Origin: a virus | Taxonomy: Duplodnaviria > Heunggongvirae > Uroviricota > Caudoviricetes | Direction: 5' to 3' (one strand) | DNA length: 8,475 bases | IMG/VR virus record: IMGVR_UViG_2698536301_000009 | Shown here: positions 867 to 8,475 of the stretch, piece after piece | Layout of the letters: each line of letters starts with the position of its first letter | Position numbering within the stretch: position 1 is the stretch's first letter | Position numbers and translations under genes: made by a program | Notes under the pieces: model-generated | Databases searched by the model: none | Told to the model about the DNA's origin: nothing | Seen by the model: the letters and a program-made list of their open reading frames with translations, nothing else

Positions 867-4549
<3,683 letters not shown>

Positions 4550-5190
4550 TCTGACAGGTGCCTCTCACTTTGGGCGTGGAGCCACGGATGGACTTTGGCC
4601 AGACCGAGCCTTCAATACGTTTGTCGCCAAGGAACGTCGGAGAGCCTTCCTGTTCAATATCCTCATCAAAGGCAGCAAGTTCATCATAACCCGCCACATC
4701 CACTGACTTTTCACGGTAGTTTTTTGCCGCTTTACCGCCCAGGCACCAGAAGCCACGACCATTGGAAAAACGCTTCATAGTGAGCGTGTTATCCCGGTGC
4801 TTTTTGCCATACCACGGAGCCAGCGCCAGCAGCGACGGAATATCGCGGATGGTCGGCTCAACGTGGGTTTTCATAAAGTTCTCGGCATCACCATCCGTCG
4901 GCAACCAGATAAGGGTGTTGCGCTGCTTATGCTCTATAAAGTAGGCATAAACACCCAGCAGCATTTTGGAATAACCGACACGGGCAGACTTCACCACATT
5001 CACCTCACGGATGTAGTCGCTGCCCATCGCATTCATGATGGCCCGCTGAAAGGGCAGTGTTTCCCAGCGCCCTTCCTGGTATGCGGATTCTTTCGGGAGA
5101 TAGTAATTAGCATCCGCCCATTCAACGGCGGTCTGTGGCTCCGGCCTGAACAGTGAGCGAAGCCCGGCGCGGACAAAATGCCGCAGCCTG

Positions 5191-5736
5191 TTAACCTGAC
5201 TGTTCGATATATTCACTCAGCAACCCCGGTATCAGTTCATCCAGCGCGGCTGCTTTGTTCATGGCTTTGATGATATCCCGTTTCAGGAAATCAACATGTC
5301 GGTTTTCCAGTTCCGGAAAACGCCGCTGCACCGACAGGGGGATCCCGTCGAGAATACTGGCAATTTCACCTGCGATCCGCGACAACACGAAAGTACAGAA
5401 TGCGGTTTCCACCACTTCAGCGGAGTCTCTGGCATTCTTCAGTTCCTGTGCGTCGGCCTGCGCACGCGTAAGTCGATGGCGTTCGTACTCAATAGTCCCT
5501 GGCTGGAGATCTGCCTCGCTGGCCTGCCGCAGTTCTTCAACCTCCCGGCGCAGCTTTTCGTTCTCAATTTCAGCATCCCTTTCGGCATACCATTTTATGA
5601 CGGCGGCAGAGTCATAAAGCACCTCATTACCCTTGCCACCGCCTCGCAGAACGGGCATTCCCTGTTCCTGCCAGTTCTGAATGGTACGGATACTCGCACC
5701 GAAAATGTCAGCCAGCTGCTTTTTGTTGACTTCCAT
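5191..5736 (-). CDS. Nu1: Terminase small subunit (lambda gpNu1)
   Basis: 181-aa ORF MEVNKKQLADIFGASIRTIQNWQEQGMPVLRGGGKGNEVLYDSAAVIKWYAERD..., matching lambda gpNu1 in length and sequence by recall, including the N-terminal winged-HTH region. Its 3' end overlaps the A start by 26 nt, as in lambda. Confidence 0.93.
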   Translation of the reverse strand: MEVNKKQLADIFGASIRTIQNWQEQGMPVLRGGGKGNEVLYDSAAVIKWYAERDAEIENEKLRREVEELRQASEADLQPGTIEYERHRLTRAQADAQELKNARDSAEVVETAFCTFVLSRIAGEIASILDGIPLSVQRRFPELENRHVDFLKRDIIKAMNKAAALDELIPGLLSEYIEQSG

Positions 5737-5757
5737 TGTTCATTCCACGGACAAAAA

Positions 5758-5875
5758 CAGAGAAAGGAAACGACAGAGGCCAAAAAGCTCGCTTTCAGCA
5801 CCTGTCGTTTCCTTTCTTTTCAGGGGGTATTTTAAATAAAAACATTAAGTTACGACGAAGAAGAACGGAAACACC
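5758..5875 (-). promoter_or_regulatory. cosB: gpNu1-binding R elements (R1 about 5761-5779, R2 about 5801-5820, R3 about 5857-5875) with an AT-rich IHF-type bend site (about 5828-5850) between R3 and R2
   Basis: gaaaggaaacgacag at 5763-5777 is a perfect 15-bp inverted repeat of ctgtcgtttcctttc at 5802-5816; a third related copy gaacggaaacacc lies in 5857-5875. The order relative to cosN and Nu1 is the lambda cosB arrangement by recall. Confidence 0.75.
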
Positions 5876-5913
5876 TTAAACCGGAAAATTTTCATAAATA
5901 GCGAAAACCCGCG

Positions 5914-5925
5914 AGGTCGCCGCCC
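5914..5925. other. cosN: the 12-nt cohesive-end sequence (aggtcgccgccc on the plus strand = reverse complement of lambda GGGCGGCGACCT)
   Basis: Exact match to the lambda cohesive end as recalled, flanked on the right by cgtaacctgtcg (lambda right-end terminus) and on the left by cccgcgaggt... (lambda left end). The sequence is continuous across cos. Confidence 0.85.
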
Positions 5926-5960
5926 CGTAACCTGTCGGATCGCCGGAAAGGACCCGCAAA

Positions 5961-5977
5961 ATGATAATAATTATCAT
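5961..5977. repeat. Short palindrome atgataa-taa-ttatcat in the cosQ-proximal region
   Basis: 7-bp perfect inverted arms with a 3-nt spacer, read directly from the sequence, about 36-52 bp from cosN on the right-end side. I could not place cosQ exactly from memory. Confidence 0.4.
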
Positions 5978-6124
5978 CTGCATGTCACAACGTGCATCTA
6001 CGCCATCAAACCACGTCAAATAATCAATTATGACGCAGGTATCATATTAATTGATCTGCATCAACTTAACGTAAAAACAACTTCAGACAATACAAATCAG
6101 CGACACTAAATACGGGACAACCTC

Positions 6125-6358
6125 ATGTCAACGAAGAACAGAACCCGCAGAACAACAATCCGCAACATCCGCTTTCCTAACCAAATGATTGAACAAATTA
6201 ACATCGCTCTTGATCAAAAAGGGTACGGGAATTTCTCAGCCTGGGTCATTGAAGCCTGCCGCCGGAGACTGTGCTCAGAAAAAAGAGTTTCTCCTGAAGC
6301 AAACAAAGAAAAGAGTGACATTACTGAATTGCTCAGAAAACAGATCAGACCAGATTGA
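6125..6358 (+). CDS. Small basic hypothetical protein, possibly a ribbon-helix-helix DNA-binding protein; cos-proximal accessory ORF
   Basis: 77-aa ORF MSTKNRTRRTTIRNIRFPNQMIEQINIALDQKGYGNFSAWVIEACRRRL... Arg/Lys-rich N-terminus, then a short strand-like IRNIRF followed by two helix-like segments, an RHH-like layout. Family membership is my inference. Weak GGGA ribosome-binding site 8 nt upstream. Local sequence is AT-rich compared with the head genes. Confidence 0.55.
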   Translation: MSTKNRTRRTTIRNIRFPNQMIEQINIALDQKGYGNFSAWVIEACRRRLCSEKRVSPEANKEKSDITELLRKQIRPD

Positions 6359-6414
6359 AGCAATTTAGATAATCGTGCAGACTACGCCCCTCATATCACA
6401 TGGAAGGTACTACA

Positions 6415-6825
6415 ATGGCTCAGGTTGCCATTTTTAAACAAATATTCGATAAAGTGCGAAATAATTTAAACTATCACTGGTTTTATTCTGAACTAAAACG
6501 TCACAATGTCTCACATTACATTTACTATTTAGCTACAGAGAATATTCATCTTGTTCTTGAAAACGATAATACGGTTTTAATAAAAGGACAGGGTAAGGTT
6601 GTAAATGTAAGATTTTCAAAAAATAAATGCCTTATAGAAGCCACCTTAAAAGGATTCAAATCAGGAGAGTTATCATTTTACGAATACAGGAAAAATCTTG
6701 CTACAGCAGGGGTTTTCAGATGGATTACAAATATCCACGAAAACAAAAGGTATTACTATACCTTTGATAATTCATTACTCTTTACTGAGAACATTCAGAA
6801 CACTACACAAATATTTCCGCACTAA
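6415..6825 (+). CDS. Hypothetical protein, possibly YbcV/DUF1398-like (the lambdoid 'putative envelope protein' family)
   Basis: Track ORF is 6400..6825 (141 aa). The second ATG at 6415 follows a GGAAGG Shine-Dalgarno-like motif (6402-6407) with 7-nt spacing and gives a 136-aa product [18 protein letters not shown]... The family assignment is from memory of similar prophage proteins and is unverified. AT-rich codon usage. Confidence 0.6.
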
Positions 6826-7081
6826 ATCATAACGTCCGGTTTCTTCCGTGCCAGAACCGGACTCGCTGGCATGATGAAATATGTGTACCCGGTAACCCCG
6901 GTGTGCATCGTTTTTGATTATTCCCGCACACTCGCGCAGAAGGAGTTCCCCGTCGGGCTACGGTCTCTGTTAATACGGGAATACGGCGACGATACAGCGC
7001 ATGATGTGTCAGGCTTGAATACCTTTATCCTTTAAAAGGGATATCAGTTAAGTTATCCCGTGTAGGGTATAAACCATTATC

Positions 7082-7108
7082 AAAGCCACTCTGTAGGAAG
7101 TGGCTTTT
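7082..7108 (+). terminator. Candidate rho-independent terminator for the plus-strand accessory ORFs
   Basis: aaagccact (7082-7090) pairs with agtggcttt (7099-7107) around an 8-nt loop ctgtagga, followed by a T; 9-bp stem with a short T tract. It sits between the convergent plus-strand ORFs and the minus-strand lysis genes. Confidence 0.35.
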
Positions 7109-7316
7109 GTAATGGCAATAAAAAGCCCCGCGAATGCGAGGCTAAATCCTGGTATTTGTAATGACTGGCTCTTATCTCAACGCAGCCCCTTACCGCGCGC
7201 AAAATGCTCAATATCAAGCATCAGCAATGAGATGTTTAATCTGGATTCACTCCAGAAGTGAGCACCACCCTGTCTACAGAGCCAGATGTGAAGGATGATG
7301 AGTAAAATTATCGCTA

Positions 7317-7784
7317 TCATCGAAGGCATTGCGTCCTGATGTATTCCTGAAGCGTTCTCAGTGCTGTTTGGTCGCGGATAATTCCGTCCCGGACACCGAG
7401 AACGTTTCGTCCAGCAACTGGAGAGAGTTCGACGGTGGCATCATTGCCCATGCCGGAGGCGCTGGAGGTTTCGGCTGAGGATGGCACAGGGCATTTTCCT
7501 TTGACGAACACCCGACCACCATTATCAAGCTTGCGCCGAAGAGCATCATTTTCAGCTTTCGCATCAGCTAACTCCTTCGTGTATTTATCATCGAGTGCAT
7601 CAGCATCACGCTGGCGCTGCTGCATGTCAGTAATGGTGGCGTTCGCCTTCTCCAGTTCACTGGCCTTGTTATCGCGCTGTTCTTTGTAGGCGATTGCATT
7701 ATCACGGTAATGATTAACAGCCCATGACAGGCAGACGATGATGCAGATAACCAGAGCGGAGATAATCGCGGTTACCCTGCTCAT
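7317..7784 (-). CDS. Rz: Spanin, inner-membrane subunit (Rz-like, i-spanin)
   Basis: Track ORF 7317..7796; the likely start is ATG at 7784 ([31 protein letters not shown]...), which overlaps the R stop (ATGA). N-terminal transmembrane segment then a coiled-coil-like charged region, related to lambda Rz by recall. Confidence 0.9.
7358..7564 (-). CDS. Rz1: Spanin, outer-membrane lipoprotein subunit (Rz1-like, o-spanin), embedded in the +1 frame of Rz
   Basis: 68-aa [24 protein letters not shown]... with a signal peptide and lipobox (VVGC) followed by a proline-rich stretch [11 protein letters not shown]. Lies wholly inside Rz in a different frame (7784-7564 = 220, not a multiple of 3), the classic Rz/Rz1 arrangement. 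Confidence 0.8.
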
Positions 7785-8278
7785 TGTTGCCCCCACAAAC
7801 AGACCTCACGCTCAATCTCACGACGAGTCATCAGGCCTTTCCATTGCTTACCGCCAGCGTATGCCCAGCGACGTAGCTGGTCACATGCGCCCTTGATATC
7901 GCCCTGGTTTATTTTGCGAAGAAGAGTAGATGTTCTGAAATTGCCTGCGCCCACGTTATAGACGAACGAGTAAAGAGCGCCGCGCGTTGTTTCCGGTATA
8001 TCGACTTTGATGTACGGGTTAATTTGTCTGGCTACCGTGGCAAGGTCTTTATTCAGGAGGGCTTTGCATTCTGCTTCGGTATACGTTTTACCGGGAATGA
8101 TGTCTTTTCCTGTATGCCCGTGACATACAGTCCATACGCCAACGATATCTTTGTATGGTATGTAGCTGACACCTTCCAGACCATCGTTACCACTTGGGCC
8201 AGTGATTAACACTGATGCTATAGCAATTGCTCCGCCACCAATAGCAGCAGCAACGGCTTTTCGTAATGATGGAGGCAT
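7781..8278 (-). CDS. R: SAR endolysin (phage 21 R-type, T4-lysozyme fold / GH24 muramidase)
   Basis: 165-aa [57 protein letters not shown]... The Gly/Ala-rich weakly hydrophobic N-terminal segment (about residues 8-27) fits a signal-anchor-release domain; E35, D44 and T50 sit in the catalytic-triad positions of R21-type lysozymes. Near-identical to phage 21 R as I recall it. Confidence 0.93.
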
Positions 8279-8475
8279 TATTCACCTCTCGCAGCCTTGC
8301 GCTTATCTTCTTTAATCTTGAAATAAAGGTTTGTCAGGTACGTCAGCAGGCCAAATACCAAGCTACCCAGCACACCTATTGCTGCCCACTGTGAGGGCGT
8401 GACTTTATCGTAAGCGTAAACTGACCGCCGTATGTAGCCATCAGACGAGAATTGGTAACTTAGACGCCCATCTGA
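8278..8475 (-). CDS. S: Holin-like protein, 3' portion only (C-terminal transmembrane helix plus charged tail resembling a phage 21 S pinholin); start lies beyond the window end
   Basis: The frame is open to the window edge; 65 codons read [65 protein letters not shown]. The stop TAA overlaps the R start (TAATG). The C-terminal helix and [13 protein letters not shown] tail resemble S21 by recall; the N-proximal visible part does not (see findings). Confidence 0.65.

Follow-up and report, generated by a model that had tools for sequence, protein, structure and literature searches.

The R gene lies on the minus strand of the analyzed window, a DNA stretch of 8,475 nucleotides, at positions 7781–8278 (stop codon included in the end coordinate), and encodes a 165-residue GH24 muramidase. 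Very probably it is rrrD (R) from a lambdoid prophage of Escherichia coli that resembles DLP12 or phage 21, and its product is a SAR endolysin that has lost its own pinholin trigger to an IS66-family element. The endolysin and the spanin genes next to it are intact, and only codons 29–71 of the upstream pinholin gene remain.

Identity of the endolysin gene and its prophage context

In a phmmer search of PDB sequences, the R product was matched over its full length (residues 1–165) by lysozyme RrrD (4ZPU, E = 3.4e-109) and by phage 21 lysozyme (3HDE, E = 2.4e-108), and the SAR-less form of the phage 21 enzyme (3HDF) aligned to residues 27–165. The Pfam family Phage_lysozyme (PF00959) covers residues 34–156 (E = 8.9e-46). 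These E-values place the similarity far beyond chance, and the Pfam domain together with the full-length matches identifies a T4-lysozyme-like catalytic domain of the GH24 type. The product is identical to RrrD at 161 of 165 positions (97.6%), with the substitutions M61I, L62P, K68E and T139A, and to phage 21 R at 159 of 165, where M98T and I159V are added to these four. Residues 1–60, which include the whole SAR segment and the catalytic triad, do not differ from either protein. The exact 165-residue protein occurs in at least 1000 public contigs, named 'lysozyme RrrD [Escherichia coli]'. At the DNA level, many complete E. coli genomes carry region 7700–8410 at 100% identity as annotated rrrD/essD; a search of 5426 genomes gave matches over at least 80% of this query in 3729.

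The start codon of R is preceded by a Shine-Dalgarno-like AGAGGTGA and overlaps the stop codon of the upstream gene (TAATG); the same boundary is used in the essD/rrrD annotation of NZ_CP025849. An earlier note had placed an open reading frame here, and its coordinates, sequence and residue numbers were all correct. By these matches, and with no finding that speaks against them, the R product is RrrD, an already known lysozyme that is very common in E. coli prophages. R21/RrrD is the textbook prototype of its class, has crystal structures and occurs in most E. coli genomes, and little is at stake in the identification. Its value lies in annotation, where the gene can be named rrrD (SAR endolysin).

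Downstream of R, a two-component spanin is present and intact. The i-spanin gene Rz (7317–7784, minus strand, 155 aa; PF03245, E = 1e-28), annotated as 'lysis protein' in NZ_CP025849, has an ATG that overlaps the stop codon of R (ATGA). The o-spanin lipoprotein gene Rz1 (7358–7564, minus strand; PF06085, E = 3.8e-21) is embedded in Rz in another frame, and its translation is proline-rich with a lipobox ending in VVGC. The flanking essD and Rz/Rz1 genes are shared with DLP12 rrrD, with the difference that essD is IS-disrupted in the window. A terminator-like hairpin is located downstream of Rz (7143–7124, minus strand).

Between the lysis genes and Nu1, at 5914–5925, lies the lambda cos 12-mer AGGTCGCCGCCC (reverse complement of GGGCGGCGACCT), which is consistent with a lambda-type cos site. 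The interval between Rz and this site holds two plus-strand genes of unknown function, a YlcI/YnfO-family gene (DUF3950, 6125–6358) and a DUF1398 gene (6400–6825); a bor homologue was not seen at this position. Past cos follow Nu1 (5191–5736), the gene for the large terminase subunit A, W (2445–2651) and the portal gene B (847–2448). The cos 12-mer followed by Nu1, A, W and B makes this a lambdoid gene order, and the source is a lambdoid prophage of E. coli with a lysis region of the DLP12/phage 21 type. Unlike K-12 DLP12, the window prophage still has Nu1, A, W and B, and is therefore larger.

Catalytic triad and SAR segment

The catalytic triad codons lie within 8129–8176 on the minus strand (E35, 8174–8176; D44, 8147–8149; T50, 8129–8131), and the three residues have the canonical E-X8-D-X5-T spacing. 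Glu35, Asp44 and Thr50, with the same numbering, are listed as catalytic for the endolysins of P21 and DLP12 alike (PMC8228626, Table 3). The earlier note had described a SAR endolysin with an intact E-D-T triad and a Gly/Ala-rich, weakly hydrophobic N-terminal segment, and both descriptions hold. The 20 residues that it quoted are residues 8–27 (8198–8257, minus strand), which follow the basic residues R6 and K7 and include 7 Ala, 4 Gly, 1 Ser and 1 Thr, that is 13 of 20 (65%) weakly hydrophobic positions. This is the make-up of a SAR-type segment, in which about 20 weakly hydrophobic residues after basic residues form an N-in type II anchor. Residues 8–27 also fit the description used for Mu gp22, a SAR stretch of some 20 residues of weak hydrophobicity with Ala, Gly or Thr at half of the positions, which comes from a study of both SAR domain criteria and spontaneous release (PMC9239132).

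Hydropathy, one of the checks proposed in the note, gave a marginal value: the best 19-mer of the segment has an insertion free energy of +0.78 kcal/mol, as a simple sum over biological-scale values (Hessa et al. 2005), and is about 3 kcal/mol less favorable for insertion than the membrane anchor of Rz (-2.46). The Kyte-Doolittle mean of the best 19-mer is fairly high (2.1), as would suit a normal Sec signal peptide that is cleaved off or a lasting transmembrane anchor, and an AXA-like A-I-A/S motif at residues 19–21 (A19-I20-A21) could formally be a signal peptidase site; but such a reading is extremely improbable, given that R21, identical over residues 1–60, keeps its signal and is released as a protein on depolarization (PMC6116005), that full-length 165-residue chains have been crystallized (3HDE, 4ZPU), and that the composition and marginal insertion energy of the segment argue against either a signal peptide or a stable anchor.

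Residues 1–27 contain no cysteine, and the second residue of the triad is Asp (D44). Because a SAR segment without Cys is combined here with Asp in the triad, as in phage 21 R, the prototype of the SAR endolysins, which is activated when its SAR domain refolds (3HDE/3HDF), regulation of the window endolysin is by these features of the R21 type and not of the P1 Lyz disulfide type. P1 Lyz (1XJT/1XJU) is likewise a SAR endolysin with the GH24 fold and a distant match (E = 5e-10), but in this enzyme Cys replaces Asp in the triad and regulation depends on a Cys in the SAR domain (PMC8228626).

Both R21 and Lyz stay uncleaved and tethered, and are freed upon loss of the proton motive force (PMF); the R21 signal, left intact by signal peptidase, tethers the enzyme to the energized membrane and joins the refolding once released (PMC6116005). 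Tethering of R21 without cleavage and its release on depolarization or by the pinholin were demonstrated by experiment (PMC6116005, PMC9239132). Very probably the window protein works as R21 does, judging from their near-identity. Sec would export the catalytic domain, and the uncleaved SAR helix would hold the enzyme, inactive, at the energized inner membrane. Upon PMF collapse, or by slow spontaneous release, the helix would exit the bilayer and refold into the enzyme body, rendering the E35/D44/T50 site competent to degrade murein, after which Rz/Rz1 would disrupt the outer membrane.

Pinholin remnant and the IS66-family element

The reading frame directly upstream of R is essD', a 3' fragment of an S21-family pinholin gene (8278–8409, minus strand) that comprises codons 29–71 (8281–8409) and the stop codon. 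In the frame upstream of R, Pfam family PF04971, 'Bacteriophage P21 holin S', was matched with E = 1.6e-20 at profile positions 24–63 of 64 only. Compared with intact essD, which encodes a 71-residue EssD, the window is identical from codon 29 (GAT AAA GTC...) to the stop codon and unrelated upstream of 8409. The fragment retains TMD2 and the C-terminal tail, and both start codons and TMD1 are gone; no intact S21-family pinholin with a dual start, TMD1 and TMD2 stands next to R, in contrast to phage 21, where the cognate S21 (S68/S71) is intact. The gene is reduced to codons 29–71 because the end of the IS66-family element begins at 8410, and it can be flagged as an IS-disrupted essD pseudogene. 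With the IS sequence spliced on, the frame is open for 84 codons, and up to the middle of TMD2 it contains no in-frame ATG, GTG or TTG; on this ground, translation of a chimeric pinholin from inside the IS was rejected. TMD2-only variants of S21 can still make transient pores (bioRxiv 10.1101/2021.04.20.440580), and the essD' fragment, if translated, could keep some activity, although it lacks a start codon and no route to its translation is evident. A consensus scan of 8279–8475, from the IS end to R, found no sigma-70-like promoter on the minus strand, and an outward promoter in the IS end was accordingly rejected.

The last 66 nucleotides of the window (8410–8475, plus strand) are the left terminal inverted repeat and beginning of an ISEc23-like element of the IS66 family. 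They open with GTAAGCG, so that the junction with essD falls precisely at the IS terminus, and share 66 of 66 positions with the end of an IS66-like element annotated in the ISEc23 family; the same stretch is multicopy on E. coli chromosomes and plasmids, in unrelated genes. In that annotated element, tnpA, tnpB and the transposase gene follow on the plus strand, and the transposase genes of the window element would lie on that strand past the window end.

The exact essD::IS junction had no match in GTDB representatives (one genome per species) or JGI metagenomes and was found in two IMG/VR contigs only. An apparent junction-spanning match in ETEC O6:H16 genomes proved to be an unrelated IS66 copy beside a restriction-modification locus. 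One of the two contigs, L005, is 100% identical to window positions 4358–8475 (4.1 kb) and at 6107–8638 contains the complete 2,532-bp IS with 26-nt imperfect inverted repeats at its ends. On the far side of the IS, L005 continues into unrelated early prophage sequence, with the 5' end of an exonuclease gene and with ydfD; neither the 5' part of essD nor an 8-bp target duplication was found there. In intact relatives quuD is located upstream of the cassette; in L005 neither Q nor the 5' part of essD adjoins the IS, and the window stops before this region. Since the far side carries exonuclease/ydfD without a target-site duplication, the layout of L005 suggests an IS-mediated rearrangement and not a simple insertion, one that would also have parted R from Q and pR'. 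What the window prophage carries past the first 66 nt of the IS is inferred from this identical relative. The second contig (IMGVR_UViG_2690316188_000012) matches the window only from 5426, inside Nu1, onward; upstream of that point its packaging module is another one, as is typical of mosaic lambdoid phages.

Present state of the lysis pathway

From the SAR endolysin the earlier note had concluded that lysis is triggered by a pinholin. A SAR endolysin alone does not imply this, because the Lyz protein of P1 is paired with canonical holins (PMC6116005, PMC9025707) as well as with a pinholin (PMC9025707), and in Mu a SAR endolysin occurs without any holin (PMC9239132). Hence an intact SAR endolysin is no evidence of an operative pinholin pathway unless the neighboring gene has been checked. 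Here the neighbor is indeed a member of the phage 21 pinholin family, and the conclusion stands for the ancestry of the locus; it fails for the present state, with essD cut after codon 28. The pinholin pathway is thus ancestral, and in this copy it probably no longer operates. The ancestral trigger was the S21-type pinholin encoded directly upstream of R, and its truncation by the IS66-family element would leave the cassette without a timed trigger of its own, making timed pinholin-triggered lysis from this cassette alone unlikely. The endolysin would now act only by slow spontaneous SAR release or upon outside depolarization, for instance in trans by the holin of another prophage, and transcription would also be required. 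Both routes are possible, as is a domesticated role of the kind proposed for the DLP12 module (PMC7918800).

In its full form, the last of these proposals holds that the locus is a remnant in which the host keeps R and Rz/Rz1 without the pinholin for turnover of peptidoglycan fragments, vesicle control or biofilm formation, as proposed for the K-12 DLP12 lysis module. In its favor, R, Rz and Rz1 have undamaged frames that match the common allele exactly although neighboring phage functions are broken, and both transcription of the DLP12 module and modulation of OMV production by it have been reported (PMC7918800). However, intact frames may merely reflect a recent IS event, the K-12 phenotype was ascribed to the whole operon including essD (PMC7918800), and no promoter is evident between the IS end and R; we therefore consider such a role rather unlikely. 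It can also be speculated, at a low probability, that the R-Rz-Rz1 trio, having lost its pinholin and late promoter via the IS, persists as a holin-independent module. Its low expression would come from IS-borne or early-operon read-through, and the host would use it for peptidoglycan turnover or vesiculation as the SAR domain is released spontaneously, or the holins of other prophages in the same cell could trigger it in trans.

A further question is whether the lesions belong to the prophage or to the assembly. Within the large terminase gene, a 643-bp segment is imperfectly duplicated in tandem (~3715–4356 and 4358–4999), with 14 internal mismatches and a frameshift. Neither the best complete E. 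coli genomes nor L005 carry the duplication, no record was found for the aberrant 310-aa terminase ORF, and identity between the window and L005 is 100% right of 4358 but only 98.7% left of 4357. Either two prophage alleles recombined unequally here, or the duplication is a join made in the assembly. The 643-bp overlap does resemble two joined alleles, and if the duplication and the IS junction were both assembly artefacts, the true locus would be an intact prophage. We regard this as improbable: exactly the same essD::IS junction recurs in two separate IMG/VR contigs, which indicates that this lesion at least is real, and its position at the IS terminal GTAAGCG also argues against an artefact.

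The opposite view of the lysis genes, that they form an operative pinholin-SAR endolysin-spanin cassette providing timed lysis on prophage induction, could draw on the intact R, Rz and Rz1, on the family of the upstream gene and on the thousands of E. coli genomes where the same DNA is part of an essD-rrrD-Rz cassette that is intact. It is nevertheless highly improbable, since what remains of essD beyond the cut at 8410 has no usable start codon, the far side of the IS in L005 does not restore the gene, and the terminase large-subunit gene is frameshifted. The reading that we prefer, a known SAR endolysin whose own trigger was lost, places the gene in a prophage that is probably defective, because the disruption of essD is accompanied by the frameshifting terminase duplication, and the prophage should be treated as such in annotation.
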